DNA of 41,518 bases from a virus. Shown in pieces: positions 1 to 41,518 of this stretch. A model generated the notes under the pieces. It was given only the letters and a program-made list of their open reading frames with translations, was not told the DNA's origin and made no database searches. The stretch is from positions 1 through 41,518 of the IMG/VR virus record IMGVR_UViG_3300010376_000020; one strand, 5' to 3'. The position numbers and the translations under genes are program-made. Numbering within the stretch: position 1 is the stretch's first letter; each line of letters opens with the position of its first letter.

Positions 1-123
1 AGCGCGGCGTCACTGATCGTGTCACCCGCCGCCTGGACGCCCGGGTCCATCACCACGGCGGGCTGAACGGCCTGCGCCTTCACATCGGGCGCTTGGATAC
101 ACTCCTGCGCCCACCGGAAACGA
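1..123. repeat. Terminal direct repeat, copy 1 (identical to 41396..41518)
   Basis: Direct reading: the 123 nt from agcgcggcgtcactgatcgtg to ccaccggaaacga are present at both ends of the window. Confidence 0.95.
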
Positions 124-8200: not shown

Positions 8201-8279
8201 TCTGGCCGCCCTTGCCGCTATCCACGTTGTCGAGATAGCCGGCGCGGTTCACGCCTGCGATGACAACTCCTATAGCCAT
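2238..8279 (-). CDS. Giant tail-tip / host-specificity protein (2013 aa, apparent fusion of distal-tail, hub and receptor-binding modules)
   Basis: A single uninterrupted 6042-nt ORF starts 2 nt after the tape-measure stop (TAA-TC-ATG). It contains internal tandem duplications (about 100-aa and about 250-aa modules), a Gly9 tract (6063..6089) and long beta-rich, T/S/G/N/P-rich segments typical of tail-tip and fibre proteins. Confidence 0.65.
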   Translation of the reverse strand: MAIGVVIAGVNRAGYLDNVDSGKGGQTKYTVASGQRGTASVSLRVHAGDTYAPLVGNPIGLYDQAGQRVFGGLITEIVKTNEGNTQETLYVCTCASFERLLDKHRIEPQSYFNQTAGAIFTAIFNSLPGETIILGQVDAGPVVPSAVYRHEVVTDVFNNLATDANFVWGVDPATEKLYFRAPTSVNAPFDLTGDPLTGAGVLWDTLEWDTAQQDFRSRQYITVNMQAMPTDTDLMTGDGTTTSFTLGNRVDTVTAVTILGGPASNMGTAGSLAFNDGDTITVGSVTYTVKTAIDNLSPNEVLIGSDSAGTMSNLAEAINGGPNMGTDFSNGTVPNPQCIATSNNNTITVTAIISGTSGNTIPTTTTCQPDEFSWPTDTLSNGNDGPTRAAVNGMFSGLPAANDTVTIDGIVYIFVATLDNTSSNQVLIGGTADACANNLVEAIAGAPHVAAGNDFSLPTLPHPTCVASYSGAGGLTVFAKAPGADGNNIAISAASTAFSWDNGNLTGGIPGPSQTATLQSGGSGTGTWIWTEGSDTISCTPALPNNVIAAVTYYRLGVDIIGVENTSLAQARAAVEGGSGIYQALIEEAYSIDPVANDPAAAIARANSLLASYGLLTQTLTFYTDSAGWQPGQALKVNLAPPFDSTLNGTWLTSQIDGSWIPGMPGWRCQVQAIAMSLNGRAASPDMRANSPTIIPRKATWQMLWQRLATINPRRQKPGGGLAVVAGTSAGGGGGGGGGNIPGAPPVSIVSEKTLMRQDGKWEVDVTYRRNASANSTNYLGAAVYLEDPDVSSESTIPLDGTSALDGTSNLGGDWVPIHVTDSTDDSSPVAVLVDAKNIQRNIRIYFAAYGPNTAPNLVRANAPGATPSIQVSIPVEPGAYQSGVEFTWLVSQCTVDVTDYFDQVSPDTGGAPPPCYTLLESYLPPDPTIPLPAGLSDFAGVQITYEYLNPDGTVASRVDGPFIPNAPSGDIDAVTGRAFAEYLTGGYAVGGGGTFNVYFRSQDVNGKTNTIVTGVTPMVQVEVIYPPPSQISTPDIANFVLANPRHTVLGDGTDLAQIDASWTPPDSARFAGVRFYVFKIGSSFLNPPMQIGPQQSDSVSACTLSVNNWPNVPQAWTVAAIAVGYNGQLNDDPHGPTHSPTQVWNIGPATTNNQGGDAPNITLGTCAVTPINSTSADGSQMIAFKLANWVNPDLTNPANNNWGGIKIALQFNSDPDATHLIWYDVPDKNATSFTTPPMPIIGNFQGPQTALTFYFVSKNQQGQLNAWNPAITPNLNYYWTPTFTPAPDVTSFTVDGAASSTATDIWQLDGSFVAQSTFAWNIPTSARYAGVVLYKVAVGGIAANPPVRLTSQQSNVDTHFLLQIPTIPNPAQTWTVAAISVDVNGVLSDDPSKYGAGLHSPTVTWTLGPPGPGGAGTDYAPLVTLGTTSVTPTTSVSGDGVGMVSFAVGSWTNPTSNNFGQAEVAMVINGQVNNAVYWKVPKGATSFTTPAMPSFGNIGANVPVAFYILSDNPQGQRNQLIPGTTPVINYTYVPSAGAVIPARSGWFSSEFSWPTSGSFQAQQFAAQKIYVGDQLIVGGAPTSFAGQTGGLNGQIAVKKAGGALVAWMGVSTPQTGEAGQGGVSGIYGAWFAQLYVGADSPLHAPVWINNAGIVMIGGIDSYTTDPSTGQPANHAGSTYPYISIRDATGLEKGRIGAKLNVASGQPGDNLGGSPPGITEGAWFTQFAAGGSNISNWCFSITPDGSNPLGSQVQIRNVYLFNIDYPAVSSTVSNQHYSVTFGNSVWTTAGMASASWQFPGFVIREVDNASNLFGATFISRGLVLRGTQSQSYPVLVSLVTFNGQSSGSDTPGVFWGELAMYSSNSPYNRTVYINSGSASSGNGAITTADVNGNALFIADQNGSISGKSFWVLGYGEVIGADGSWMGKAMPLPTSPTFTFVTSTQGFNVGANGSYQLNGTQVIDFQRNTNFNICTAASYSVGSSPGQSGVFHINDQNNVQRTVTFTNGIITQIV

Positions 8280-8281
8280 GA

Positions 8282-11065
8282 TTAGGGTGAGAATGCGGGC
8301 GAGACGTTTTTCAGATAACTCGCCACGGCCTGCGCGGTCTGCTGTGGGCTTTGCGCGCCGTTGATGGTGATATTCACCGTGAGAGGCATGGTGGCCAATT
8401 TTTTAATGTTGGTATTGATGTTGTCGGTGTCGCTCAGGAGGCCGACCCAGGCATCGTGAATCCAGGTGTTGATATTCAACAAAGGCGTGGTATTGACGGC
8501 AATGATGTGCAGCCAGTCCTGCACGCCGCCGCCGCCCAGACCCCCGATGAACATCGCGGTTTCGCGGGTGTTGAGCTCGATCGAGCGCAGGATGTCGGTC
8601 TGATGCGCATTTTGGATGTCGCCGATGACGCCGGTGACGAAAGAGCCCACCGCGCCGATGGCGCCCACCATGCCCATCGCACCGGAGAGCGCGCCACCGA
8701 CCGCGCTCGAAACTCCGCCACCCCCGCCTCCGCCGGGAAGGGGCAGGCCTGCTCCGCCTCCGCCTCCGCCTCCTCCGCCGCCTCCGCTAGGCCCGAAGAT
8801 CTTGGTCCACATCCCGCCCAAATCCGAGAGCTTCGACATCAGCGCATCGATCCCCTGCTTGATGAGCTTGTTCAGGATCACGTCGAGCACGTCCTGCCCG
8901 AGCTTGGTGAAGGCCTGCGAAAGATTGCCGGTTTGCAAGATCACGTCACTGATGCCTTTGGCGAGGTCGCGGTCAATAGCCTGGCCAATTTCCTGGCCCA
9001 TCGATTTGCCGGCGGTAGTGGCGGTCAGGAAATGCTCGCGCATCTGATCCGTGGCGCTAATCTGCGCCTGCGTCAGGACCGGCAGATTGCCCAGCTCGAT
9101 TTCCGTACCTTGGATATCGGTTGTGAGCTCCTGTACGCTCACGCCTGCATTTTTGGCGGCTGTCTCTAGTTGCTTGTAGGCTTCTTCCACCTGACTGCCA
9201 GAAAGCGTGCCCCAATTCACGAGTTGGACATAAGCGGTCAGCAGATCCTGGTACTGCTGCTGGTTTTTGGTGGTCTGGTCCTGAAGCTTGACCATCGCAT
9301 CGGTGACACCGCCCATCGCAGGCGGCACGTCGCCGATTTTGCCCGCAAGTTTATCCCAGTCGTCGATTTGCTTTTGGATGTTCTTGTCAACGTCCGCAGT
9401 GACCTTCTCGAGGCCCACGCCGTTCTGGAGGACGTAATCGTTCAGGATCTTCAACGCATCCGAGACTTGCGCGAAGCCGAGCGAGCCCTGGGCGCCGGCC
9501 TGGACCATCTCGGCCTGGAGCCGGATAAACTCGTCGTAGAGCTTGGAAACGTTGATACCCGCAGCAGCCTCGTTCCATTGCTCATCCAGGCCCGCGAAAC
9601 CTCGCTGGAACTGATCGAAAGCCTTCTGGGCGCTGTCATCGAGGGTCTTGAAGGGATTGGTTTCTCCGATAAGGCCTAATTCTTTGAGCTGTGCAATCGT
9701 AGAAACCGTGGCGCTTGTAGTTTGTGTCAGCGTGTTTCCGAGGCCTGCTATGCGCGTTCGAAACTGCTCTACACTCTCTCCGGTCTGATCGGTTTTCTGC
9801 TTCTGATCCCAGAAACCCGCGCTCACTGCCGCCATGTGCTCGCGGATGTAGTCCAGCTCGGTGCCGATATCGGTGTTGTTTTTGTAGGCCCGGATCGCCG
9901 CTGCGGCCAGGGTTGCGGCTTCGGCCAGCGCCTTCCATTCTGCGACGAACTGCTGTAGCGGCGGGATGAAATCGGTCCACTTGATGCCCAGTCCGCCCGT
10001 TCCAGTCAATTCCTTGAGCGGAGAGAGAACCTCGGCAACCGTGGTTTTGAGAACCGAAAAAGCTCCCGCCGCCTCGACCACGGCGTCCGCCAGCGGTTTT
10101 ACGAGGCCGGCCGCCTGGCCGATCAGGGGTATGAGCGGCTGGATGGCATTCAGCACCGTGATGATGGCTGGTGCTAAGGCGTTGCCCAATTCCTCGGCCG
10201 CGAACTCAAATTGCGTTTTTGCGTTCTGCCAAGTGCCCGCCAGATCGCCGGCGGTGGCTTGCGCGGTGCCCGCAAATTTTTGCAGAGCAAGATCCAATGC
10301 TTCAACGCGGTCAGCCACATCCATCGACTTGAAGAGGTTTTTAACCTGATCGTCAGCCACGCCCAGGACTTTCGCGAGATCATCCGTGGTTAGCCCAAGG
10401 CTAGCCAGCGTGCGCCCCATCGCATTGCCGGATAAACCGATCCGGTCGATGGTATCGGCAACGGTAGTAAAATCCGTTCCCAAAGCACGCGAGGCATCGG
10501 CTGCGGCCTGCAGGGTCGTCATCGTCTCTTCGGTCGAAAAGCCGAGTGCGGTCATGCGCTGCGCGGCTTGCGCGAGGGATGGGAAGCTCAATGCATCCGA
10601 GAGAGCTAGAGCCTTGAGGTCTTCGATCATCCCGGCCGCAACTTCGCCTGAACCCGTCAGCGCGGTAAGCGACGTTTCCACGCGCTGGACTGCGGCGTAG
10701 GTTTCCACTGCCTCAGTCACGAATTCCTTGAGGGTTTCGACAATTTGTTCGAGCCCGACATTGAATCCAGCAAATTCAGCCGCGAGATTCAGCGATTCCC
10801 CGAAGCCCTCAAAGGCGCCAGCGCCTTCGTGCGCGCCTTCTCCAGCCTGCTGAGCGGCTTGCCCGAGTCCTTCGACTTGCGGCGTAGCTTCACTAGCCGC
10901 CGCCCCCAATCCACCTGCATCTTGTGCAGCGGCAGTAAACGCCCCCGCGATCTCCTGCCCACCCGCCTGCGATGCGGCTACTGCGGCATCAATGGCCGCT
11001 TGCAAGTCCGACCAGTCGCCGATAATGTTTACATCGATATCGCCGATGCTCGCAGCTACCGACAT
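8282..11065 (-). CDS. Tail tape measure protein
   Basis: 927 aa, A/Q/L/G-rich and helical, lying directly after the chaperone pair (TAA then ATG, adjacent). The C-terminal part carries poly-Gly tracts (GGGGGGGGGGAGLPLPGGGGGGG). Size and position are canonical for a siphovirus tape measure. Confidence 0.85.
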   Translation of the reverse strand: MSVAASIGDIDVNIIGDWSDLQAAIDAAVAASQAGGQEIAGAFTAAAQDAGGLGAAASEATPQVEGLGQAAQQAGEGAHEGAGAFEGFGESLNLAAEFAGFNVGLEQIVETLKEFVTEAVETYAAVQRVETSLTALTGSGEVAAGMIEDLKALALSDALSFPSLAQAAQRMTALGFSTEETMTTLQAAADASRALGTDFTTVADTIDRIGLSGNAMGRTLASLGLTTDDLAKVLGVADDQVKNLFKSMDVADRVEALDLALQKFAGTAQATAGDLAGTWQNAKTQFEFAAEELGNALAPAIITVLNAIQPLIPLIGQAAGLVKPLADAVVEAAGAFSVLKTTVAEVLSPLKELTGTGGLGIKWTDFIPPLQQFVAEWKALAEAATLAAAAIRAYKNNTDIGTELDYIREHMAAVSAGFWDQKQKTDQTGESVEQFRTRIAGLGNTLTQTTSATVSTIAQLKELGLIGETNPFKTLDDSAQKAFDQFQRGFAGLDEQWNEAAAGINVSKLYDEFIRLQAEMVQAGAQGSLGFAQVSDALKILNDYVLQNGVGLEKVTADVDKNIQKQIDDWDKLAGKIGDVPPAMGGVTDAMVKLQDQTTKNQQQYQDLLTAYVQLVNWGTLSGSQVEEAYKQLETAAKNAGVSVQELTTDIQGTEIELGNLPVLTQAQISATDQMREHFLTATTAGKSMGQEIGQAIDRDLAKGISDVILQTGNLSQAFTKLGQDVLDVILNKLIKQGIDALMSKLSDLGGMWTKIFGPSGGGGGGGGGGGAGLPLPGGGGGGGVSSAVGGALSGAMGMVGAIGAVGSFVTGVIGDIQNAHQTDILRSIELNTRETAMFIGGLGGGGVQDWLHIIAVNTTPLLNINTWIHDAWVGLLSDTDNINTNIKKLATMPLTVNITINGAQSPQQTAQAVASYLKNVSPAFSP

Positions 11066-21772: not shown

Positions 21773-23638
21773 TTAGCGCCGTCCATTTCCGATCAATTGC
21801 GCCCGCTCCCGAATCTCCCGCAGCACGCTCAGCGCTTCCTGCGCGGCCGCGCCCTTCTCCGGCGGCGGCGTCCCTTTCCCCGGCTCGCCCTTGCCCGGCG
21901 GCGGCATCGTCTGCGGCGCGGCTTGCGTGCGCTGATCCTCCACATCCGCTTTGGGATCGTAATCCGCGCCGTAAATCTTGTCGAGCAACTGGGTGCGGTT
22001 CTCGTAGCCCACTTCGGCCAGCATTCCATCGACGACCGTCCTCCGGTCGATCCCGCCTGCGTAGATGCCCTGCCGCCCGCCGTTGGTAGCGATATCCACC
22101 CAGGCCTGCACCATCGCGTGCACGTCGTGTTCGAGCACCGCCGGGAACTTGACAATGATCTGGATAGGCTGTGGCGCCGGGTTCTTCCCGCGGGCCTCGC
22201 GCATCTTTGTACCGGGCGTCTGTCCCGCCACCATCAGCACGTATTCGAGCACGCGTGTCAGCGTCTCCACCCAGCGCTGCTGGATCTCTCGAAACTTCAG
22301 CTCCGTCGGCCGGTCGAGCGAGACGGCCGTGGCGAGCGATCCCGTAGAGGCATCCCCAAAGAACGTCTCGGGCAACCCGGTGGCGGCAGCGGCCATGAGC
22401 AGAACCCGTCGTGCTTGCTCGGGCGCCGTTTGCGTGCCGGCCGTTTTGAACGGTGTGATCTTGTTGTCCGGTCCTGCGACATGTGCTGCTCCTACTGCAG
22501 GCGGCGGGTTGCGTTCGATTTGCGTGCCGCCGGCATCCGCAAAGGTCGTTGTGAGCAGAGCCTGATAAGCCGCGATCGCCGCGGGTCCGCCCTTGGTTTC
22601 GACATTCAGCGCGAAGCGCGCGAGCGACTTCTGCACGGTGGCCCAATCCTCAAGAAAGTCCTTGTACGCCCGCGCCCAGTCGATGGCCGCATAGATCGGC
22701 GGAACCGGCCAGCGCCACTTTGCCGGGGACCCGCCACCATGGACGCGATAAATCGGCATCTCCCAATTGACCGGCACATCGCCCAGCGATTGCGGCTTCT
22801 CTTTCGGATTCGAGAGCAGGTATTCAAGCGAGGGATACCAGGCTTTCTTCGCTTCGCCGGGCTGTGTGCCGCTGTGCGTTTGGATGTTTAACTGGTTCCA
22901 GTGCCGCAGGTAGTACCAGATGCGGCCGGTATCGTCGGGATCGCAGAGCACGTCCATGATTTCGAGCGGATCGATGGTCGATACTGTGATCTCGCCAGCG
23001 GCGTTGGCCGGCAGAGCGAAATACAGAGCGCCATCGGTCTGAATGGAGTTTTCGTCATTCGCGAGCGCAGTGTGGCTCAACTGCGCGGCATTGAGCTTCA
23101 AAAAATCCTGAATCGTTTCGTTGGCCGTCTCATCTTCAGCACGCATCTCGATGCCGCGGCCGAAGACGTACATGCGGCAGATTTCCGCGCCGCGCTTGAT
23201 GATCGGGTTTTTCAGCGCGTAGAGGCGCGAGATGCGGATGAGCTGCTGCACGCCGTAGCGCGAGAATTCGAGCATGGCGAGCGTGGTTTCGCGAATCCAG
23301 CCGCGGTCTTCGAGAGCTAATTCGAGCTCCCACAGCCGCTCTCGCAACTCAACTGGAGTGTTGACGGGCACGGCCAGTGCGCCGGTTTCACGGATGCGCT
23401 CGTAGGCTTGCGGATTGACGCAGGCCAGCTCGGCTTCGCGCAAGACCAGCATTTCGTGCATGCGGAGGCGGAGCTGGTGGCGCTGGTATTGGAACTCTTC
23501 GGCGAGGAGGGAATCGGATTCGGAGGCCCGCGTGGCGGAACGGGCCTCCCGGATGGCGTCACCGGCGCGGGTCAGCAGCTCACGAACAGGCGAGAGGTTA
23601 AGAGCGCGGGTCGTGAGCCAGCCGCGGAGCGAGCGCAT
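21773..23638 (-). CDS. Portal protein (putative)
   Basis: 621 aa, the only ORF of portal size between the terminase and the head genes. The C-terminus is acidic and Pro-rich. The call rests on size and position; no clear SD at ATG 23638. Confidence 0.6.
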   Translation of the reverse strand: MRSLRGWLTTRALNLSPVRELLTRAGDAIREARSATRASESDSLLAEEFQYQRHQLRLRMHEMLVLREAELACVNPQAYERIRETGALAVPVNTPVELRERLWELELALEDRGWIRETTLAMLEFSRYGVQQLIRISRLYALKNPIIKRGAEICRMYVFGRGIEMRAEDETANETIQDFLKLNAAQLSHTALANDENSIQTDGALYFALPANAAGEITVSTIDPLEIMDVLCDPDDTGRIWYYLRHWNQLNIQTHSGTQPGEAKKAWYPSLEYLLSNPKEKPQSLGDVPVNWEMPIYRVHGGGSPAKWRWPVPPIYAAIDWARAYKDFLEDWATVQKSLARFALNVETKGGPAAIAAYQALLTTTFADAGGTQIERNPPPAVGAAHVAGPDNKITPFKTAGTQTAPEQARRVLLMAAAATGLPETFFGDASTGSLATAVSLDRPTELKFREIQQRWVETLTRVLEYVLMVAGQTPGTKMREARGKNPAPQPIQIIVKFPAVLEHDVHAMVQAWVDIATNGGRQGIYAGGIDRRTVVDGMLAEVGYENRTQLLDKIYGADYDPKADVEDQRTQAAPQTMPPPGKGEPGKGTPPPEKGAAAQEALSVLREIRERAQLIGNGRR

Positions 23639-24382: not shown

Positions 24383-24636
24383 TGAACACCCGAATCAAAG
24401 CGATTGGCCTGTTCCCTCAGCAGCTTGATGATGTCGCGGCGATCGGCGCCGTTGGAAATGTAGTTGCATCGCCCACTCTTGTCCCCGTAGGGAAACACCA
24501 GCAGGACAAAGCCGGTCTTCCGGTCGTGCCCCCTCGCATCTCCATTGAAGGTTTCATCTAACACTCTGGCGATCGCATTCATCTGGACTCGATATTCGTC
24601 TTCAATCGGGGCATCTCCTAATTGGTGATCGCTCAC
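24379..24636 (-). CDS. Hypothetical protein
   Basis: 85 aa from GTG 24636, with a GTGA overlap to the glycosyltransferase stop. Confidence 0.4.
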   Translation of the reverse strand: MSDHQLGDAPIEDEYRVQMNAIARVLDETFNGDARGHDRKTGFVLLVFPYGDKSGRCNYISNGADRRDIIKLLREQANRFDSGVQ

Positions 24637-25316
24637 AGCGCCATCTCCTCCCTGCAAAAATCGTCCCACTCCGTCGCCCGCTTCCAACTGATCGAGCTCT
24701 TGGCAACCTGCTCAATCCGATATCGCTCGGTGTTGCCGTTGTGTATCCCGGCAATGATACGCGGGTTTTCGGGAGCGATCCCAAGCGAGTCCACCTGGCG
24801 CAGCCATTCCCAGTCCTCGCCGCGTCGCAGCTCGGGGAACTTCACCCGCTCCCATACCTTCAGCCAGTAGCACATCGAATTGCCGAGGCAGTAGCTTATC
24901 AGGCCGTTCGAATACATCCAGGCTGTGCCGGTCTGCTCGTCCCAGAACAAGCCCGCGCGGTAGCCCACGCAATCGCGGTCGGATGCCTGAAGCGCCGCCA
25001 CCTGCTCCGAGATGCGCTCGGCGTGCGACCAGTCGTCGTCGTCAAAGTGCACCGCGATCTTAGCGCCGGCGGAGACGGCGAGCTGCGCGGTCACATTGCG
25101 GTAGTAGCCGATCGTCTTGCCGGGTGCCGCGGCGTGCGTGATGATGCCGGGGCCAGCGTAGAGCGAACGGATCAGCTCGTCTTCCTGCGGGTCGTTCGAT
25201 AGCAGGATCAGCACGCGGTTGGGATAGGTCTGCTCACGGAAGCTGCGCACAGCGCGCGGAAGCATGTGGAAGCGGCCGGCGGTGGGCATGAGGCAGGCGG
25301 CGAGGGGAGGGGTCAT
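24633..25316 (-). CDS. Family-2-like glycosyltransferase
   Basis: 227 aa from ATG 25316 (TAATG overlap). The N-terminal pattern of a beta strand followed by P(T)AGR, the segment REQTYPNRVLILLSND and the acidic motif HFDDDDW look like a GT-A fold with a DxD motif. Confidence 0.65.
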   Translation of the reverse strand: MTPPLAACLMPTAGRFHMLPRAVRSFREQTYPNRVLILLSNDPQEDELIRSLYAGPGIITHAAAPGKTIGYYRNVTAQLAVSAGAKIAVHFDDDDWSHAERISEQVAALQASDRDCVGYRAGLFWDEQTGTAWMYSNGLISYCLGNSMCYWLKVWERVKFPELRRGEDWEWLRQVDSLGIAPENPRIIAGIHNGNTERYRIEQVAKSSISWKRATEWDDFCREEMAL

Positions 25317-25975
25317 TACCACTTGAAACCAGCTACCGGGAATTCAAAGGCCTTTGAGCCGTTCTGATAAAACTCCGCCTCGATGTGAACCACCTTGGCC
25401 TTTCGCATTTGTTGCACAAAGCCGCCCACATCCTGAATGAATAGCAGCGTTGTCGAATAGTCGCTCGGTCCAACAGCGGAAAAACGTTGAATTGGTCCTT
25501 GATCAAAGCGAACATTAACGGCACAGCCTTGTACATGGCAAATAAATTGGCCTCGTTCGATTCCAATAATCACATCCGTCAAGGTAGTCTTATTGGTCCG
25601 GACGGCCAACATGCCATGCTGGGCGCCCTGATAGGGAAATCCGAAATTGACCGTATTGCCGGATAATACAGTTGCTGTAAATTTCTCACGGCCCATTTGG
25701 TCTGTATTCTGTTCATAATCCCAGCCGGGCTCGGCAGTCTCCTTGATCGCAACCGGCTCGTGCGTGGATGTCGGTGCACTGGCTTGCACATTTCGCTTGC
25801 CGCCGAATGCCGCAATCATTACCGCCATCGTGACCGCGATTCCAACCAGCACGAGCAGGATCGTGATTTTGGGTGAAGTGCGCCGATGATCATGGCCGGT
25901 AAATTGATACCGGCATCGCTCGCAGAATTTGACTTGCCGTGGAAATACCATGCGGCATCTTCGACATTCACTCAT
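25316..25975 (-). CDS. Zinc-ribbon / single-TM membrane-anchored protein
   Basis: 219 aa. CRRC-x12-CERC at the N-terminus is followed by the TM helix ITILLVLVGIAVTMAVMIAAFGG and an exported domain of about 150 aa. ATGA overlap with the Imm-like gene. GC is visibly lower. Confidence 0.55.
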   Translation of the reverse strand: MSECRRCRMVFPRQVKFCERCRYQFTGHDHRRTSPKITILLVLVGIAVTMAVMIAAFGGKRNVQASAPTSTHEPVAIKETAEPGWDYEQNTDQMGREKFTATVLSGNTVNFGFPYQGAQHGMLAVRTNKTTLTDVIIGIERGQFICHVQGCAVNVRFDQGPIQRFSAVGPSDYSTTLLFIQDVGGFVQQMRKAKVVHIEAEFYQNGSKAFEFPVAGFKW

Positions 25976-26193
25976 TGCCGTTGATAACCTCCGAAGTTCG
26001 CTGCTGCGGCATCACCGCGCACTTTCACCGCCCATACCATCGCGATAACCCATCCCACGAAGGTCCAGCCGGCTAAAAAATTGAGAGCAAAAATCGCGCC
26101 GGCATTGCGGTTGCCTTTGGCCCACAGCGCAGGCAAAAAGTAGATCGCTCCGCCTATTGCAATGAGTACAACAAGTACAACAAATATATCCAT
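25972..26193 (-). CDS. Superinfection immunity protein (T4 Imm-like family)
   Basis: 73 aa. IYFLPALWAKGNRNAGAIFALNFLAGWTFVGWVIAMVWAV matches the YFLP...N...GWT.(I/V)GW...WA signature of the Imm_superinfect family. GGAGG SD present. Confidence 0.8.
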   Translation of the reverse strand: MDIFVVLVVLIAIGGAIYFLPALWAKGNRNAGAIFALNFLAGWTFVGWVIAMVWAVKVRGDAAAANFGGYQRQ

Positions 26194-26227
26194 TCATTCC
26201 TCCGAAAAAATCCCCTTCGATTCGGGG

Positions 26228-26422
26228 TTACTCTTGTTCCTTCTTGGCCGTCCGCTGAAGCTCCCGCCGCAGCACACGCTCGATCCAGCGATGGACGAAC
26301 ATGCCGTCAGCTTTGGCCTGCGCCTTCACTTGCGCCCACAGCTCGCGGTCGATGTTGCGGATGTAGGCAACGGTCTCGTGGCGTTCCACTGGCATCAGCT
26401 TATTCATGCGGAGCACTTCCAT
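26228..26422 (-). CDS. Ribbon-helix-helix DNA-binding protein
   Basis: 64 aa. VAYIRNIDRELWAQVKAQAKADGMFVHRWIERVLRREL fits the strand-helix-helix pattern of the Arc/CopG/antitoxin type. Confidence 0.6.
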   Translation of the reverse strand: MEVLRMNKLMPVERHETVAYIRNIDRELWAQVKAQAKADGMFVHRWIERVLRRELQRTAKKEQE

Positions 26423-26425
26423 ACG

Positions 26426-26656
26426 TCATCGTTCGACCACCGGCGGATGAGTCCAGCGGTCCCGTTCTTCCAGCGTTGCGACCCGTTCGCGGATATTGCC
26501 GATGTCTGCCCGAATCTGTGATAGCTCCGCGCGAATCTCGAGAAGCTCAGCGCGGATGCTCTTCACCTCCATGAGGTTCCATAGCACTGCGCCCAATAGC
26601 GGCAGCGTTCCCATAAAAACAGCAAGCGCGAATTGCCAAACCTGAAGATTTATCAC
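26426..26656 (-). CDS. Small membrane protein, N-terminal TM helix plus coiled coil
   Basis: 76 aa. The hydrophobic stretch WQFALAVFMGTLPLLGAVLWNL is followed by the repetitive helix IRAELLEIRAELSQIRADIGNIRERVATLEE. Confidence 0.5.
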   Translation of the reverse strand: MINLQVWQFALAVFMGTLPLLGAVLWNLMEVKSIRAELLEIRAELSQIRADIGNIRERVATLEERDRWTHPPVVER

Positions 26657-26907
26657 TGCTCAATCCGGTAGCACTGTTCGGTTTCGTTCCAGATCTGCTG
26701 GCGCGTCACCCACTGGCCATTTTCCCATTTATCGACCATTAACACCTTCGGTTGCGGTGGCCTACGCTGCGATCCTGCAAGCGATGCTTTGCGCCAGCCA
26801 TCCAAAATCGCTCCGAAATCACCGGCTAACCCGCTCGCGTGGCTATTGAAGCCGCTATTCATGAATACGCTTGCCGGGATGCCTTTGTTCCGTTTTGTGT
26901 TGCTCAT
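26653..26907 (-). CDS. Hypothetical protein, first gene of accessory operon
   Basis: 84 aa with an ATGA overlap to the next gene. It is preceded by a strong promoter-like element. Confidence 0.5.
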   Translation of the reverse strand: MSNTKRNKGIPASVFMNSGFNSHASGLAGDFGAILDGWRKASLAGSQRRPPQPKVLMVDKWENGQWVTRQQIWNETEQCYRIEQ

Positions 26908-26929: not shown

Positions 26930-26958
26930 ATGCTAGCGCAATGCTAGCATGTTGTCAA
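26930..26958 (-). promoter_or_regulatory. Sigma70-like promoter TTGACA - 17 nt - TAGCAT (minus strand) with two ATGCTAGC repeats 11 bp apart (26930..26937, 26941..26948)
   Basis: Read directly. The -35 hexamer is the reverse complement of 26953..26958 and the -10 hexamer the reverse complement of 26930..26935. The repeats cover the -10 and the spacer, so they are a candidate operator. Confidence 0.5.
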
Positions 26959-27043
26959 GATGTATTGTGTGCTTGCAAACACGGGCGCTTTCCGGCACCC
27001 TAGGGTTAGGTACCGGCAACCGCCAACGGAGGGCAAAACACGG

Positions 27044-27277
27044 ATGCAAAATCGCAAGACGGGGCATTTGAGAAGAGGGCAGGTATCGCCGGAGGAGCGC
27101 CAGATCCGGTATATGCGCCTGATTGTCCTGGACGGCTTCCAATACGAGATACCCAGGTCTATGGCCTTGTACATTCTCGACGGCAAGGACAAAGCCGAAC
27201 GCCTTGCGGCATCATCCAAGGACAATTCCTGCGTCAGCTACTCGGGCATCTCCCGGGTTTGGCGTGAACAACGCTAG
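27044..27277 (+). CDS. Hypothetical small basic protein (plus strand)
   Basis: 77 aa from ATG 27044 with GGAGGG about 10 nt upstream. I prefer it to the overlapping minus-strand ORF 26944..27225, which is R/C-rich and lacks an SD. Confidence 0.4.
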   Translation: MQNRKTGHLRRGQVSPEERQIRYMRLIVLDGFQYEIPRSMALYILDGKDKAERLAASSKDNSCVSYSGISRVWREQR

Positions 27278-27829: not shown

Positions 27830-27867
27830 CTATACTCTAGTGTATAGACAGAAATGTATAATGTCAA
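27830..27867 (-). promoter_or_regulatory. brnTA promoter/operator: TTGACA (rc of 27862..27867), weak -10, and 18-bp near-perfect palindrome CTATACTCTAGTGTATAG (27830..27847) abutting the ATG
   Basis: Read directly. The palindrome has one mismatched central pair. There is no SD before ATG 27829. The -35 hexamer overlaps the terL stop codon. Confidence 0.5.
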
Positions 27868-29219
27868 TACCTCGAAATCACCACCGGCTCCATGAACGCC
27901 ATCGCCACGGTCCGCTCCTCCGGCTCCACCACCAGGTCCGTCACCGCCCACACCAGCGCGTCCATCCGGTCCGGCGACCGCATGTCTGCATCCGGCGCCC
28001 ACTCGCACATCTGCTGCTCGAGTTCCGCGAGCCGGCCGACATGATGCACCCGGCCCTGCTCGTACAACGCCGCCACCGGCTCCGCGCGCACCGCTTTGCC
28101 GCGGGAAGCACGCACCGCGCGAAACGCGACTTCCGGAGCAACGGCCCGGATGTTGGCTTCGACCAGATCGCCGCCGTTGTTCACCTCGCCCACGATCCGG
28201 TCAGCGCGCTGTGTCCGGTACGCCGTCACCGCAACCCGCGCCCAGCCGAGCGGCGTTTCCCGGCAGCTCAGGTCGTCGAGCACGATCACGTGATTCGCCC
28301 GGGTGAGCGCCGCCACGACGATGCCGGTCTCGGCGGAGTCTTCCTCATGCGACACCGCTGGATCGATTGCCACCACGATGCGAATGATCGCGGTCCAATC
28401 GACATCGTGGGAGCCGATGCGCGCCGCGTCGATCTGCTGTTGCTTCCACAATGCGCCGGGATGATCTTCCAAAATCTCGGCCATCAGCTCCTGCCGGCCG
28501 AGGCGCGTGCCTTCATAGCGCTTGATGATCGAGTCGAAGAACGCGACCGACAGATTGGCGCGGTTGTCGTAGGTGGTCGCGCGCGTCACCACGGTGTGCG
28601 GCTCGGCGAGAATTTCCTTGAGTACCGCGAGCGGTTTGGGTGTCGTCGTGATGATGCCGCGCGGATCGTCGCCCAAGCGCCAGCCGAATTGCAGGTTGTC
28701 CCAGGCTTCGCGCAGGTAGCGCCAGGCGGCGACCTCGTCGGCTGCGAAATGGCTGCACTGCGGGCCGCGCAAACGCTCAGGTTCATCCGCGCTGAATAGT
28801 TCGGCAACTGCCCCGGTGTGAAACTTAATCAGCCGCTTCGAAGGCTCGTATTCCGGACGCTGATGGCGCGGGAAGCAGTTGAGCAGACCGCTCTCGCCCA
28901 GGACCATCACGTTGCGCACGTCGGCCGCCGTCGGTCCCACCAGATGAATCCGCTTCGCGCCCTGCTCCACCCACTGCCGCACCGTTTCGCCGCCACATCT
29001 CGTCTTGCCGAAGCCGCGGCCGGCGAGCACCACCCAGATGCGCCAGTCTTTGCGCGCGTCGGCCGCGTCGTCCGAACCCGGCGGAAGCTGCGCGGGCCGC
29101 GCCCAGAAGCGCCAATCGTAAAGCAGCTCTTCAGCTTGCTTGGGCTTGATCGCTTTCAGAATTTGCTCCCGCTTCGAGACGGGCAGCCGCGCTAAGGATT
29201 CGGCCACGGAATAAGTCAT
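27864..29219 (-). CDS. terL: Terminase large subunit
   Basis: 451 aa from ATG 29219. The Walker-A-like segment VVLAGRGFGKTRCG is followed by HLVGPTAADVRNVMVLGESGLL, a pattern I associate with Terminase_6 / GTA-like large terminases. A C-terminal nuclease-like acidic region is present. The start is uncertain; the ORF is open to 29486. Confidence 0.85.
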   Translation of the reverse strand: MTYSVAESLARLPVSKREQILKAIKPKQAEELLYDWRFWARPAQLPPGSDDAADARKDWRIWVVLAGRGFGKTRCGGETVRQWVEQGAKRIHLVGPTAADVRNVMVLGESGLLNCFPRHQRPEYEPSKRLIKFHTGAVAELFSADEPERLRGPQCSHFAADEVAAWRYLREAWDNLQFGWRLGDDPRGIITTTPKPLAVLKEILAEPHTVVTRATTYDNRANLSVAFFDSIIKRYEGTRLGRQELMAEILEDHPGALWKQQQIDAARIGSHDVDWTAIIRIVVAIDPAVSHEEDSAETGIVVAALTRANHVIVLDDLSCRETPLGWARVAVTAYRTQRADRIVGEVNNGGDLVEANIRAVAPEVAFRAVRASRGKAVRAEPVAALYEQGRVHHVGRLAELEQQMCEWAPDADMRSPDRMDALVWAVTDLVVEPEERTVAMAFMEPVVISRY

Positions 29220-29631
29220 AGGCTCGGTGTTCGATTTGGATCGGATCGCCGTTCGGTCCGCTGATAGCGTGCTCATAGCGCTCGCGGTATTTTTCCGGCG
29301 CTGCGCCTTTGAGCAGGAAAATGAGCAGCGTGTCGGAATATTCGCGGATGGTGACGCGCTTGCCCGCCACCGTCGTCGGTTTGTTAACGCCCTCGACGGC
29401 GCGCCGCCACGCTTCGTCTTCGAGCAGTTGCACGATGGCTTTGCGGGCCTTTTCGAATTGCGCCTTGTATTCCGGGTCACGATCAAGCCACTCGTAGTGA
29501 TTCCTGCGATGCAGACCGACCACCTCGAAGGCTTTATCTATCCGGCCGACTTCCTGGTAGCGCATCAGCACGGCCATTTTGGTGGCCTTCAAGTGGCCCA
29601 GCTTTTTAGGACGTGCGATTACGCGACTCAC
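29131..29631 (-). CDS. terS: Terminase small subunit (putative)
   Basis: 166 aa from GTG 29631 (GTGA overlap with the upstream stop), or 148 aa from ATG 29577. It has an HTH-like N-terminus, and the segment SDTLLIFLLKGAAPEKYRER is typical of small terminases. It lies directly upstream of terL and overlaps it. Confidence 0.6.
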   Translation of the reverse strand: MSRVIARPKKLGHLKATKMAVLMRYQEVGRIDKAFEVVGLHRRNHYEWLDRDPEYKAQFEKARKAIVQLLEDEAWRRAVEGVNKPTTVAGKRVTIREYSDTLLIFLLKGAAPEKYRERYEHAISGPNGDPIQIEHRAYDLFRGRILSAAARLEAGANSESDQAQAS

Positions 29632-34035: not shown

Positions 34036-35298
34036 TTAGTTCGGCCTCCCCTCCCCGAAAATCAATCCCGACATCCGCTCCAATGCCTCCCGCGCATCCG
34101 CGCTCGTGGTCTGGTCGTAATGCAGCGTCATCGCCGCGTTCGCATGCCCCATCAAGGCGCGCCGGTCCTCTACCCGCATCCCGCTCACCCCTCCGAGCGT
34201 CGAGAATGTGCGCCTCAAATCGTGCCAGCCGATCCGTGGAATGCCGAGCTCGGCAGCCGCCTTGCGAACGCGCCGCAACGCCGCGCCGGCATCGAGCGGC
34301 CGGGTTTGGTCACGCCCCGGAAACACCAGCCCGTCCGGAGCCGCTTGCGCCTGGCGCATCTTCCACTGGTTCAGAATCGCCAGCAAGTGCGAAGTCAACG
34401 GCACATTGCGTCGCCGCGTTTTGGTTTTAGTGCTGCCGAACTCCCGCCGATACCACTGCTCCCGCACTGCAACCGCAAATTCGGGGATCAACTCCCCGTC
34501 CACGATCGCTGCGGATTCGCTCAGATTCACCCGCTTCCAACGGAGAGCCGAGACTTCGGCGACATTCATAGATGTCATCGAAGCGCATGCTACCATCGTC
34601 CTCTCTGCCGGGTCGAGCGAACCGAGCAAACGCCGCAACTGGTCAAAGCCCAGTGCCTGCACAGTACGTCGCGCAGTGATCTCCGGCAGCCTTACCTTGG
34701 CCGCGGGATTCCTCCCGCTGAACCATTCAATGAATTCGGCGTATTCAAAGATAGTTCCTACCGTGGTCCTCAAATGCCGCGCGGTCTTCGGCGAATAGCC
34801 CCGCAGGATGGCTTCCCCAATGAGGCGCTGCACGTCCTCATGGCGCACGTCGCGCAAGCGCAGTGTGCCCAAACCACAGCGCCGCGGAACTTCAGGGGCC
34901 CGTTCGCCCCGCTTGACGCCCTTAAAGCTCGGGAGTTTTTCCGGAATGCCCCCAATGGCCAGCCGGAGCATCGTATCGTAGTGCACGCGGCCCGCTTTTT
35001 TCAACATCGCCACACGCTCCGGAACAAACTTGCGATCCACAAACTCCGCTACCGTCACAATCGATTGCGGCGTCCGCATGTTCTGGTCGAGACGCGATAA
35101 AAAATTGTCCCACCCGAAACGCCGCGCCTGCTTTTCGGTGAGCTTTAACGGTCCTTCCGCTGGACCAATCACTACCGGCTTCGACCATCCATACCGCGTG
35201 GAACCGTCCGGTAGCATCTGGTCCTCCCTCCAGCGCAACTTCCAATATCCCGCCTGGATATACAGGTTCCCCTTTTGCTGCAATCGTCTTCTCGCCAT
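34036..35298 (-). CDS. int: Tyrosine integrase; start uncertain (35298, or 35373)
   Basis: The C-terminal catalytic pattern is ...WHDLRRTFSTL...LMGHANAAMTLHYDQ (R...H-x-x-R...Y). There is an N-terminal arm-binding-like segment GNLYIQAGYWKLRWRED. It is adjacent to the tRNA-fragment attP. Confidence 0.9.
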   Translation of the reverse strand: MARRRLQQKGNLYIQAGYWKLRWREDQMLPDGSTRYGWSKPVVIGPAEGPLKLTEKQARRFGWDNFLSRLDQNMRTPQSIVTVAEFVDRKFVPERVAMLKKAGRVHYDTMLRLAIGGIPEKLPSFKGVKRGERAPEVPRRCGLGTLRLRDVRHEDVQRLIGEAILRGYSPKTARHLRTTVGTIFEYAEFIEWFSGRNPAAKVRLPEITARRTVQALGFDQLRRLLGSLDPAERTMVACASMTSMNVAEVSALRWKRVNLSESAAIVDGELIPEFAVAVREQWYRREFGSTKTKTRRRNVPLTSHLLAILNQWKMRQAQAAPDGLVFPGRDQTRPLDAGAALRRVRKAAAELGIPRIGWHDLRRTFSTLGGVSGMRVEDRRALMGHANAAMTLHYDQTTSADAREALERMSGLIFGEGRPN

Positions 35299-35398
35299 AT
35301 CCTCGCTTTCATGCCGAAATTCATTCGGTATGAACCCGATTGTAGCAATTGGTTGCGGTTCGTGGCGTTTCATGTTATTCTGCGTTCTGTAAGATCTT

Positions 35399-35605
35399 AT
35401 GCCCACCCAAAAAGCACCGTCCCGTATCACCGTGATGGAAATCCGTAAGGATCTCGGCTTAGGCCAACGGCGCGTCTATTTCATGCTGAAGAACAACATC
35501 ATTCCGAATGTGCGTCTGGGCCGGTCCTGGATCGTTGCGCGCCACGCCTACGAACAATGGAAGCAAACCGCCGGCATGGGCAAATCCACTCCAGACCTTC
35601 CATAA
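35399..35605 (+). CDS. xis: Excisionase / MerR-type HTH DNA-binding protein
   Basis: 68 aa, or 56 aa from ATG 35435. ITVMEIRKDLGLGQRRVYFMLKNNIIPNVRLGRSWIVARHAYEQW fits the excisionase-family HTH. It is divergent from int. Confidence 0.7.
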   Translation: MPTQKAPSRITVMEIRKDLGLGQRRVYFMLKNNIIPNVRLGRSWIVARHAYEQWKQTAGMGKSTPDLP

Positions 35606-35633
35606 TCAAAATGTCCTCTCTCTGAAAACCAAC

Positions 35634-35702
35634 CCGGAAGCGCAGAAAGCCAAAGAGGCCACCTCCCCCGAGACTGACCAACCTCGCTTTCTACGCTTCC
35701 GG
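35634..35702. terminator. Long imperfect inverted repeat (17-bp arms, 16/17 paired, 35-nt loop); candidate terminator/insulator or structured RNA
   Basis: CCGGAAGCGCAGAAAGC (35634..35650) pairs with GCTTTCTACGCTTCCGG (35686..35702). On the minus-strand transcript the hairpin is followed by GTTGGTTTTC. It lies in the convergent gap between xis and the 108-aa gene. Confidence 0.35.
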
Positions 35703-35717
35703 CTCGAGACTCGCCAC

Positions 35718-36044
35718 CTAATCGACGACGCTGCGAAAATCGCGCTCTTCGTCATATTCGCGTGCGATCATGACCTCTCCTTCCCATCCAGCCGGGAGCA
35801 CGCTGATCGTCCCCTCCGGGTCGTGGTCCTCGTGCTGGATGGAAATTCCGCCCTCTTCGGAAACCCGCAAGAACGTGCGCCCGTCGATCTCGAACATTTC
35901 CGCGTTGGCTTCGTCGGCCATACAGATGCGGTGGGAATGTCCGGTCTTCTCCCCGAACGCGAATGGACGCAGCGGAATTCTCTTTGCGCCCGCCGGGATT
36001 TTTCCGGCGATGAATCCTACATCTCCTTGTCGTGCGGTAAGCAT
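35718..36044 (-). CDS. Hypothetical protein (QGDV ... GE.TGHSH motif)
   Basis: 108 aa with a GGAGAAAG SD. I have seen the RQGDV...P.GAK...A.GE.TGH.H pattern in small phage proteins of unknown function. Confidence 0.5.
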   Translation of the reverse strand: MLTARQGDVGFIAGKIPAGAKRIPLRPFAFGEKTGHSHRICMADEANAEMFEIDGRTFLRVSEEGGISIQHEDHDPEGTISVLPAGWEGEVMIAREYDEERDFRSVVD

Positions 36045-36062
36045 TGTTCTGGGACTTTCTCC

Positions 36063-37223
36063 TTACGTCTGCCAATCTGGTTGATATTCGGCGGGTTTCA
36101 CATTAAACCGCCAACTTAAACCTTCGAGCGCTGTCCGTACATCCGGAGGCACACGCTCAAAATAGACGCTCCCCGTGCTTGGACAAGTGAGACGCATCAT
36201 GCGAATCTCTACCGGATCTCCAGGAAGTTGGAGCGCGAGCAGAGTCGCGCCATGCTCAACGGCATGATCTACTTCATTAGCTCCAGCGTCGATCATGAAG
36301 CGATCGTTTCCATAGAGATTTCGCATGACGCGGCGAACTTCTGTGTTTTGTTCCTTGAGAATGCTGCCAACCGTGATTTTGTCGCGTTCTCCAATAATAT
36401 TCGCGGGGACCCGTACACCATGCCATGCATAGATAGCCCATCCGTCTGGATACATGACCGCCGGGCTGGTTTCACAATGCAATCGTCCGCGGTCATCTCG
36501 AACGAGAATATGATGACGCTCTGAAACCCAACAAATGTGCTGGTGCGGGAGATACCAACCGGCAGTTTGCGCCTGCTCGAAATAGCCTGTCAGCTTTTCC
36601 GTTTGTGCTGTTAGACCGCATTGCTCCCGAAAGAATAAATAAAACGCCAGCCAGTTAGCGTCATGCTGTCCGTAACCGCTGTCCCGGACGCTGTCCCGGA
36701 CGCTGGCCCCGACGCTGGCCCAGACGCTGTCCCAGACGCTGGCCCGGACGCTGTCCCAGACGCTGTCCCCCACGCTGTCCCGGACGCTGTCCCAGACGCT
36801 GGCCCCGACGCTGGCCCCGACGCTGGCCCGGACGCTGGCCCCGACGCTGGCCCGGACGCTGTCCCGGACGCTGTCCCCGACGCTGTCCCAGACGCTGTCC
36901 CCGACGCTGGCCCGGACGCTGGCCCGGACGCTGGCCCCGACGCTGGCCCCGACGCTGGCCCGGACGCTGTCCCGGACGCTGGCCCCGACGCGTTTATCGA
37001 GGATGATTGCGCGGGTTAAGCCCTGGGATAGAGGAGATCCACACCAGACGATCTTGCGGGGAATTTCCAAACCAGCAGATACATACATCTGCTTGATGGC
37101 CGCTTCCGCACGTGGCCTGTCGGCAGCATCTGTCGATAACCCAATCTTGATCCAACGATCACGATATTCCGCCAGCTTATCCGTTTGTTGTTTGTTCAGT
37201 GATTGTATTTTTTTCAGTGGCAT
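36063..37223 (-). CDS. Tetrapeptide-repeat protein: (V-[G/R/W]-[A/D]-S) x 26 followed by a conserved C-terminal domain (possibly DUF6745-like)
   Basis: 386 aa from ATG 37223; the ORF is open to 37256. The repeat is at 36678..36989. The C-terminal domain contains GRLHCETSPAVMYPDGWAIYAWHGVRVP and KEQNTEVRRVM, which I recall from an uncharacterised bacterial family that often has SVWDSV-type repeats. Confidence 0.6.
   Translation of the reverse strand: MPLKKIQSLNKQQTDKLAEYRDRWIKIGLSTDAADRPRAEAAIKQMYVSAGLEIPRKIVWCGSPLSQGLTRAIILDKRVGASVRDSVRASVGASVGASVRASVRASVGDSVWDSVGDSVRDSVRASVGASVRASVGASVGASVWDSVRDSVGDSVWDSVRASVWDSVWASVGASVRDSVRDSGYGQHDANWLAFYLFFREQCGLTAQTEKLTGYFEQAQTAGWYLPHQHICWVSERHHILVRDDRGRLHCETSPAVMYPDGWAIYAWHGVRVPANIIGERDKITVGSILKEQNTEVRRVMRNLYGNDRFMIDAGANEVDHAVEHGATLLALQLPGDPVEIRMMRLTCPSTGSVYFERVPPDVRTALEGLSWRFNVKPAEYQPDWQT
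36678..36989 (-). repeat. 26 tandem 12-nt units GCTG[T/G]CCC[C/G/A]GAC (plus strand), in frame
   Basis: I counted the array unit by unit. Only two nucleotide positions per unit vary, apart from one GAC to CAC change in unit 8. All other positions, including synonymous sites, are invariant. Confidence 0.95.
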
Positions 37224-41355: not shown

Positions 41356-41518
41356 CTATAGGAAATTCTGGATCGCCGTCTCGGTCGCCGTCTGCAGCGC
41401 GGCGTCACTGATCGTGTCACCCGCCGCCTGGACGCCCGGGTCCATCACCACGGCGGGCTGAACGGCCTGCGCCTTCACATCGGGCGCTTGGATACACTCC
41501 TGCGCCCACCGGAAACGA
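41356..41518 (-). CDS. 3' part of the junction-spanning 112-aa ORF (see 1..299)
   Basis: The frame from ATG 299, carried through the terminal repeat, ends at TAG 41358..41356. Confidence 0.55.
   Translation of the reverse strand, partial: RFRWAQECIQAPDVKAQAVQPAVVMDPGVQAAGDTISDAALQTATETAIQNFL
41396..41518. repeat. Terminal direct repeat, copy 2 (identical to 1..123)
   Basis: Direct reading. Confidence 0.95.

Follow-up and report, generated by a model that had tools for sequence, protein, structure and literature searches.

The 41,518-nt window analyzed here, the whole of IMG/VR virus record IMGVR_UViG_3300010376_000020, has an exact 123-bp overlap joining its ends (1..123 and 41396..41518) and is therefore a circularly closed genome of 41,395 bp, which, together with an integrase gene, identifies it as a complete temperate phage genome and not a prophage with host flanks. 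Between its genes for the large terminase subunit (TerL) and the portal protein lies an island of ~4.2 kb, the front part of which is formed by six genes (g1 to g6; coordinates in Table 1), including those for a T4 Imm-like protein (g4), a zinc-ribbon protein with an exported domain (g5), and a family-2 glycosyltransferase (GT2; g6). Our bioinformatics analyses suggest, with a probability of roughly 0.55, that its modules were inherited separately and serve three separate functions, which would make the island a mosaic and not one co-evolved exclusion system. The more notable results are a glycosylation island conserved between terL and the portal gene across a clade of uncultured phages and a large unannotated family of exported domains. 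An earlier reading of the sequence alone had proposed that the six genes form a promoter-equipped, multilayer cassette in which an inner-membrane block and receptor modification act together. The six open reading frames (ORFs) are all present on the minus strand, with coordinates and motifs essentially as described, and the overlaps noted between them are also there (ATGA at g4/g5 and TAATG at g5/g6). The individual elements of that proposal, namely an exclusion-family protein, an envelope protein, and a glycosyltransferase in a temperate phage, are confirmed, whereas the single joint system is not. In what follows, gene structures, families, folds, topology, and distribution are direct observations, and from them we infer expression timing, acceptors, and exclusion activity.

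Evidence for a mosaic history comes from sister phages, in which TerL is 88-90% (L005 and L016) and the portal 81-88% identical to the window proteins, GT2 is 62-76% identical, and the C-terminal domain of g5 is 38-59% identical or replaced; this gradient, running from the structural genes (81-90%) through GT2 to g5, is what separate inheritance would be expected to leave. In loci L005-L008, the gap holds a g1-like gene, a ribbon-helix-helix (RHH) gene, a gene for a zinc-ribbon/transmembrane protein, GT2, and then g9- and g7-like genes, and Imm, g2, and the BrnT/BrnA toxin-antitoxin pair are all absent. The order is RHH, exported protein, GT2, small genes, and portal in L013, and g1-like, transmembrane/coiled-coil protein, RHH, exported protein, and GT2 in L015-L019. 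The exported domain is preceded by nothing but a signal peptide in L013 and, after correction of the start, in L015, and L005-L008 keep the zinc-ribbon/transmembrane anchor of g5 (73% identity across its first 80 residues) and join it to an unrelated C-terminal domain. The argument that physical coupling implies joint action is not supported: Imm is absent from every relative examined and its closest homologs are solitary. A conserved cytoplasmic contact between GT2 and g5, made by way of the zinc ribbon, is unlikely, given that g5 has no cytoplasmic part at all in two sub-lineages. Tightly coupled translation of phage genes is by itself no sign of a functional complex, and the common transcript and coupling of these genes would stem from tight phage gene packing rather than from one machine. 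Under the mosaic reading, g5 would occupy a fast-evolving exported-protein slot just upstream of GT2, and Imm and BrnT/BrnA would be independent, lineage-specific insertions. The block also continues past the point where the sequence-only reading had let the unit end (24633), since five further overlapping small genes extend to the portal gene. Coding runs on without a break from g1 to the portal gene, and the terminator scan detected no intrinsic terminator on the minus strand after GT2 and ahead of the portal, which speaks against an insulated promoter-plus-terminator cassette. Of the promoter and terminator of its own that mark a moron, the block has a conserved promoter-like site and no detected terminator before the portal.

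The glycosyltransferase and its candidate acceptors

The assignment of g6 to GT2 survived profile search (PF00535, Glycos_transf_2; 33.5 bits against a cut-off of 23.3), and both it and the Imm assignment, on whose failure in such searches the earlier proposal had staked itself, pass the Pfam curated thresholds. The protein, 229 aa long if started at the GTG at 25322, two codons upstream of the ATG, has no transmembrane segment by hydropathy. The DxD aspartates D92, D94, and D95 do not vary among the 11 sequences of alignment A4, and its AlphaFold2 model has a GT-A fold (predicted local distance difference test score, pLDDT, 83; predicted template-modeling score 0.82). A sequence search against the PDB returned nothing significant; the fold search alone was informative, with Foldseek matches (E = 5e-10 to 3e-8) to heparosan synthase (8VH8), the Leptospira glycosyltransferase 6P61, TarP, SpsA, and RmlT. 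Identity to solved GT2 enzymes is 12-17%, so that neither donor nor acceptor can be read from these matches.

The distribution of the enzyme does not bear out its description as an accessory gene. This GT2 subfamily has 282 relatives in IMG/VR, and among the loci that we fetched (L001-L095), a TerL homolog lies upstream of GT2 in 30, often less than 250 nt away, and a portal homolog downstream in 37. To avoid circularity, a further sample was chosen by portal homology and not by GT2, giving 44 loci that extend 7 kb or more upstream of the portal; the GT2 subfamily is present on the same strand in 38 of these, the g5 domain in 4, and Imm and BrnT/BrnA in none (0/44 each). The position of GT2 is kept across portals diverged to 33% identity. 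GT2 is thus near-core and syntenic in the terL-portal interval (38/44 loci), and is probably the old, ancestral resident of this gap. In 21 distant loci, the 131 ORFs lying between GT2 and the portal gave 19 matches to Glyco_tranf_2_4, 18 to Glycos_transf_2, and 12 to FkbM methyltransferases, and also matched epimerase, RmlD, and GDP-mannose dehydratase families. Judged by this gene content, the terL-portal interval of the clade appears to be an island for building glycans, and the window phage has retained a single enzyme of it. If so, many uncultured phages, mostly from soil and forming a broad clade, would have a glycosyltransferase as a near-core part of their packaging/head module, and whole glycan-building islands between terminase and portal would extend phage-directed glycosylation, be it of the virion or of the host surface, well beyond the actinobacteriophages in which it has been demonstrated. 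In GTDB, on the other hand, relatives of GT2 are at most 37% identical, mostly chromosomal, and often domains of large proteins, and a TerL homolog was found upstream of GT2 in two loci only, one from a Chloroflexota and one from an Acidobacteriota metagenome-assembled genome (MAG). One distant phage relative, L012 (5035..9510), carries GT2 after terL, followed by a 563-aa RmlD/epimerase-methyltransferase fusion, an FdtA-like protein, and a further GT2, in what appears to be a sugar-nucleotide pathway carried in a phage.

We propose that GT2 would add one sugar during cytoplasmic glycan building and would be expressed with the late packaging and head genes. Such a late role and a virion acceptor are favored because of the clade-wide conservation of the gene in the packaging/head module and because of its methyltransferase and glycosyltransferase companions. 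A virion protein is the single most likely target, although we name it tentatively, and a host envelope glycan comes next as a serious, if somewhat less likely, candidate. Glycosylation of DNA was also considered and judged unlikely, because the ORFs scanned include no hydroxymethylase, TET, or matching DNA-modification gene and because GT2 in relatives is accompanied by genes for enzymes that build sugars. The enzyme resembles those of Gtr serotype conversion and TarP, the latter being among its fold matches, in that a temperate phage encodes it and it is a family-2, DxD-containing protein of GT-A fold. However, GtrB of the Gtr modules is membrane-anchored, whereas g6 has no membrane anchor, and no neighbor had a family match to a GtrA flippase or GtrC partner, so that the block does not classify as a Gtr module; GT2 of the window phage also differs from the Gtr enzymes and TarP in being clade-conserved inside the packaging/head module and not sporadic. 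Another point of comparison is provided by the gene sets of actinobacteriophages (Che8 and relatives) that PMC11256854 and PMC13313380 link to virion glycosylation. In these sets glycosyltransferases and methyltransferases occur together, as do the several glycosyltransferases and FkbM methyltransferases in the terL-portal interval of the distant relatives, whereas the window phage retains a single glycosyltransferase. The actinophage genes lie near the genome 3' end according to PMC11256854, and not between terL and portal as here.

The exported protein and the Imm-like protein

The topology proposed for g5, with a cytoplasmic zinc ribbon, one transmembrane helix, and an exported domain, agrees with hydropathy and with the AlphaFold2 model (pLDDT 81), in which the ribbon spans residues ~1-25, the helix ~35-57, a disordered linker rich in Ser, Thr, Pro, and Ala ~58-80, and a beta-sandwich 86-213, the exported domain as a whole covering ~82-219. 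The ribbon itself is present, but its spacing is CxxC-x10-CxxC (residues 4-21) and not x12 as first read. In alignment, C4/C7 and C18/C21 coincide with CxxC pairs in the homologs P0002, P0003, P0007, and P0011, and relatives match DZR and Zn_Ribbon_1, with the Pfam match of g5 itself being insignificant (E = 0.74). The metagenome gene caller places the start at Met9, which removes the first CxxC; Met1 is the likely start, because the homologs keep both pairs. The best Foldseek match of the exported domain is IalB (Bartonella invasion-associated locus B; 3DTD), aligned over 142 of 143 target residues with a target-normalized template-modeling score of 0.57-0.59. Both are extracytoplasmic beta-sandwich proteins, but the resemblance is one of fold only, as g5 has no sequence-profile membership: no IalB-family match was obtained for g5 and nine homologs among Pfam-A families at E <= 1, and the domain profile searched against PDB sequences gave no match to 3DTD and nothing usable. 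On the strength of the model, g5 would hold an IalB-like beta-sandwich in the periplasm, tethered by its single transmembrane helix and a cytoplasmic zinc ribbon.

The exported domain, which in g5 keeps the family-invariant residues, belongs to a sizeable unannotated family that recurs in temperate phages. Its profile recovers 4214 cluster representatives (clusters at 50% identity) at E <= 1e-3 and 1804 at E <= 1e-30, and no Pfam model covers the domain in the members tested. N-termini across the family include zinc ribbons, plain transmembrane helices, lipoprotein-like or Sec signals, and one trypsin-like protease; the homologs P0003 and P0004 are solitary chromosomal genes in housekeeping neighborhoods. 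One family record (P7869) is labeled 'helicase PriA', probably owing to zinc ribbons. The domain occurs in 10 cultured phages. For example, in the Pseudomonas phages vB_PaeS-D14O and Marin, the homolog comes third or fourth after cI, downstream and in the same orientation, and in Microcystis phage MACPNOA1, a gene with this domain is divergent from an XRE regulator. The slot downstream of cI commonly holds prophage-expressed exclusion genes in temperate phages, and the place of the homologs in it is the best functional hint that g5 is a prophage-expressed envelope protein. As a protein of this type, g5 would probably exclude other phages or alter the envelope. Prophage exclusion proteins encoded beside the repressor include lambda Rex, P22 SieA/SieB, and TP-J34 Ltp. 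The homologs of vB_PaeS-D14O and Marin resemble these in being cI-side and membrane-anchored with an extracytoplasmic domain, whereas g5 of the window lies in the late region and not beside a repressor, and the likeness noted is one of position and anchoring. No paper on zinc-ribbon membrane proteins acting in superinfection exclusion came up in a literature search. A more far-reaching idea, which we consider unlikely, is that the g5 domain marks a large envelope family used from lysogeny-expressed slots as a new class of superinfection exclusion or envelope defense, the swap of periplasmic domains on a constant anchor (window phage against L005-L008) acting as a specificity switch. Because culturable Pseudomonas phages carry the domain in their repressor operon, its function is directly testable in the laboratory.

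The assignment of g4 to the T4 Imm family was upheld by PF14373 (Imm_superinfect; 48.8 bits against a cut-off of 27.9, E = 6.6e-13), by phrog_1039 'immunity to superinfection' (E = 1.3e-13), and by tblastn, in which residues 18-64 are 45% identical (E = 7e-6 to 5e-5) to the annotated imm of the T-even-like phages JS10, Bp7, and VR5. Like T4 Imm, g4 is a small PF14373 member with two hydrophobic segments (windows 1-26 and 32-58), but it lies between terL and portal in a temperate phage and has no identified Sp-like partner, whereas T4 Imm is encoded in the early region of a lytic myovirus. Among the relatives, Imm was found only in L009, a 5.5-kb contig with identical proteins, and is missing from all 44 portal-sampled loci and from L005-L008, L013, and L015-L019. 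The closest named homolog, a Terriglobia MAG protein, is 52% identical. Homologs stand alone, in one case between primase and dUTPase in another phage and in another in a chromosome beside an IS1595 transposase and a methyltransferase, and by this distribution Imm appears to behave as a single-gene mobile module. It is probably a recent single-gene insertion that, by analogy with T4 Imm, would most likely block DNA entry; we know of no test of exclusion activity for PF14373 members outside the T-even phages.

Alternative explanations

An alternative that we regard as unlikely is that GT2, together with the glycosylation island of its relatives, modifies the lipopolysaccharide, exopolysaccharide, or capsule of the host, either for lysogenic conversion or against re-adsorption of progeny, with g5 as a periplasmic partner in binding or handling this glycan and Imm unrelated. 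The sets of several glycosyltransferases, methyltransferases, and sugar-nucleotide enzymes do resemble polysaccharide loci, the cellular GT2 relatives are domains of large chromosomal glycosyltransferases, the nearest fold matches act on polysaccharides or teichoic acids, and an exported protein is encoded directly upstream of GT2 in three sub-lineages. However, GT2 keeps its position inside the late packaging/head module, whereas conversion genes are typically sporadic; moreover, most GT2-bearing relatives are without g5 and most g5 homologs without GT2, and no flippase or polymerase partner was seen in the window phage. The co-acting cassette first proposed, in which Imm, the zinc-ribbon protein, and GT2 would be expressed in the prophage from their own promoter and combine an inner-membrane block with a change of the receptor glycan, strikes us as improbable. 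It draws on the Imm and GT2 family assignments, which hold, on the translational coupling of the three genes in a phage that is temperate by its integrase, on the promoter-like site and palindrome kept in sister phages, on the existence of prophage GT2 enzymes that modify surface polymers, with TarP among the fold matches, and on the g5 relatives in the cI operon of Pseudomonas phages. Yet Imm is missing from all relatives, GT2 is near-core and usually follows TerL directly without Imm or g5, L013 and L015 do without the cytoplasmic part of g5, having a signal peptide alone, no detected terminator separates the block from the portal and head genes, and a GT2 without a transmembrane segment is found with no GtrA- or GtrC-like partners.

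It is very improbable that the island is ordinary phage filler, that is, a set of real ORFs with no host-directed role for g5, g1, g2, or g7-g10, with a promoter match due to chance, and with GT2 as the decaying remnant of a larger island. A count of promoter motifs that does not exceed the shuffle expectation, the single glycosyltransferase here against several in distant relatives, and the many small ORFs without a family would fit such a view, but GT2 retains all invariant residues, including the DxD motif, and has a confident GT-A model, the g5 domain likewise retains its family-invariant residues and folds confidently, and the promoter hexamers and palindrome are kept where the flanks diverge. 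Several points also weigh against the mosaic reading that we prefer, with its late GT2 and independent g5 and Imm. The occurrence of the exported protein directly upstream of GT2, in overlap with it, in three sub-lineages could stem from a functional link and not from common ancestry, and the conserved sigma-70-like promoter of g1, with its operator-like palindrome, could drive prophage-state expression of the block; late as opposed to lysogenic expression is read from gene position only. When 50,697 cultured phage records, among them those of actinobacteriophages whose virions are glycosylated, were searched with GT2 by tblastn, there was no match, leaving virion glycosylation without sequence support. 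The resemblance of g5 to IalB is moderate (E = 1e-3, 12% identity), and the function of IalB is itself poorly defined. Finally, the hints to an Acidobacteriota host are weak, consisting of the 52%-identical Imm homolog in a Terriglobia MAG and one Acidobacteriota prophage-like locus.

Regulatory sites, small genes, and genome context

Table 1. Features of the window and, in the last two rows, g5 homologs of cultured phages
Feature	Coordinates	Strand	Remarks
TerL, large terminase subunit	27864..29486	-	Upstream anchor of island; PF03237 E = 3e-23, PF17289 E = 8e-15
Promoter-like site, BrnT	27839..27867	-	TTGACA-17-TACACT; directly upstream of BrnT, overlaps TerL stop
BrnT-family ribonuclease toxin, 99 aa	27530..27829	-	PF04365, 73.8 bits (cut-off 34.5)
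BrnA-family antitoxin, 96 aa	27274..27564	-	PF14384, 54.8 bits (cut-off 26.1); overlaps BrnT
Promoter-like site, g1	26930..26958	-	TTGACA-17-TAGCAT; upstream of g1; consensus scan
g1, soluble protein, 84 aa	26653..26907	-	N-terminal motif KRNKGIPA..FM.SGFN kept in sister phages
g2, 76 aa	26426..26656	-	One transmembrane segment and coiled coil; start overlaps g1 stop (GTGA)
g3, putative RHH regulator, 64 aa	26228..26422	-	Weak profile matches
g4, T4 Imm-family two-transmembrane inner-membrane protein, 73 aa	25972..26193	-	Contains YFLP...GWTFVGW...VWAV
g5, bitopic membrane protein, 219 aa	25316..25975	-	Zinc ribbon, transmembrane helix, disordered linker, exported beta-sandwich
g6, soluble GT-A family-2 glycosyltransferase, 227 aa	24633..25316	-	DxD motif in HFDDDDW
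g7, 85 aa	24379..24636	-	GTG start overlaps GT2 stop (GTGA)
g8, 72 aa	24164..24382	-	CxH...CxxC cysteine/histidine cluster
Putative hydrophobic ORF, 30 aa	24075..24167	-	Called in sibling contig L009 (4507-4599)
g9, 68 aa	23872..24078	-	Kept directly after GT2 in sister phages
g10, putative ORF, 75 aa	23648..23875	-	GTG start overlaps g9 stop; read from sequence
Portal protein	21773..23638	-	Downstream anchor of island; phrog_10963 E = 5e-63
Tape-measure-like gene	8282..11065	-	
HNH endonuclease-helicase fusion, 615 aa	31911..33758	-	N-terminal HNH domain fused to ResIII/DEAD-type helicase
Tyrosine integrase	34036..35430	-	Mid-genome
g5 homolog, vB_PaeS-D14O (L185)	BK061588.1 36301..36954	as cI	
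g5 homolog, Marin (L188)	OR683406.1 15742..16395	as cI	

The promoter-like site that the sequence-only reading had placed before g1 was recovered by our scan, at 26958..26930. The inverted repeat ATGCTAGC-N5-GCTAGCAT (26930..26950) spans its spacer and -10 element and is a possible operator. The motif count in itself is not above chance (2 sites in 7 kb against 3.0 expected from shuffles), but both sites occupy the sole two intergenic gaps, one immediately ahead of BrnT and the other of g1, and L005, L007, and L015 keep -35 TTGnnn, -10 TAnnnT, and, in the spacer, the palindrome TAGCA-N3-(T/C)GCTA (alignment A3), to which the inverted repeat of the window corresponds. Because hexamers and palindrome are conserved in these sister phages, the g1 site is probably a real, regulated promoter, for which the conserved g3 is a candidate regulator. 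The gap between BrnA and g1 measures 366 nt; folding of a 381-nt stretch covering this intergenic region was not significant (z = -1.19). It contains an invariant 13-mer, GGTTGCCGGTACC (~27010..27022, minus strand), followed by a conserved ..GGGTG, which is shared by the window phage, L005, L007, and L015; in these four lineages it lies ~60-100 nt upstream of the -35 element while the flanks diverge, and in L005 ~80 nt are inserted directly after it. The element gave no Rfam match and no significant fold. A 77-aa plus-strand ORF (27044..27277), called in L009, would diverge from the g1 promoter and was considered as a divergent regulator; it was set aside because it has no family match and L005 has no ATG at the aligned position, and it is probably spurious. 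BrnT and BrnA both exceed their Pfam thresholds, their genes overlap, and they stand in toxin-antitoxin order; the pair is inserted directly after terL and is absent from all sister phages. A search of ten island proteins, BrnT/BrnA included, with PADLOC defense models gave no matches, and an NCBIfam search of the island proteins gave sub-threshold matches only.

Among the small genes, g1 had no match in Pfam, PHROG, or NCBIfam and has homologs in L005 and L015-L019 (phmmer, E = 1e-14 to 1e-16). Hydropathy gives g2 a single hydrophobic segment (residues 6-29) followed by heptad repeats; it matches coiled-coil families weakly, resembles a 90-aa protein of L015, and is absent from L005. The RHH call for g3 is a weak one (PF22513 in Pfam, E = 0.048; the Arc-like phrog_582, E = 0.0086; Arc in the PDB, E = 0.4), and its profile found nothing usable among PDB sequences, but the gene is kept in L005, L013, and L015, with a strand-helix-helix pattern visible in alignment A7. 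Beyond GT2, g7 has a 69% identical homolog in L005, g8 is confined to the window phage among the relatives examined (phmmer), g9 has homologs in L005, L013, and L015-L019 (phmmer, E = 5e-22 to 2e-32), and g10 stops 9 nt short of the portal start codon (ATG at 23638).

In the wider genome, megablast of the 8.5-kb region against the 50,697 cultured phage records and an Rfam search across the whole window gave no match. The TerS gene is next beyond TerL, and a capsid/protease module and a tape-measure protein are present. A 203-aa gene adjoining the integrase (35508..36119), one of the few on the plus strand, has no family match and could be a repressor candidate. Downstream of the tape-measure-like gene, a 2013-aa minus-strand ORF (2238..8279) without a Pfam match at E <= 0.01 is presumably a giant tail or host-recognition protein.

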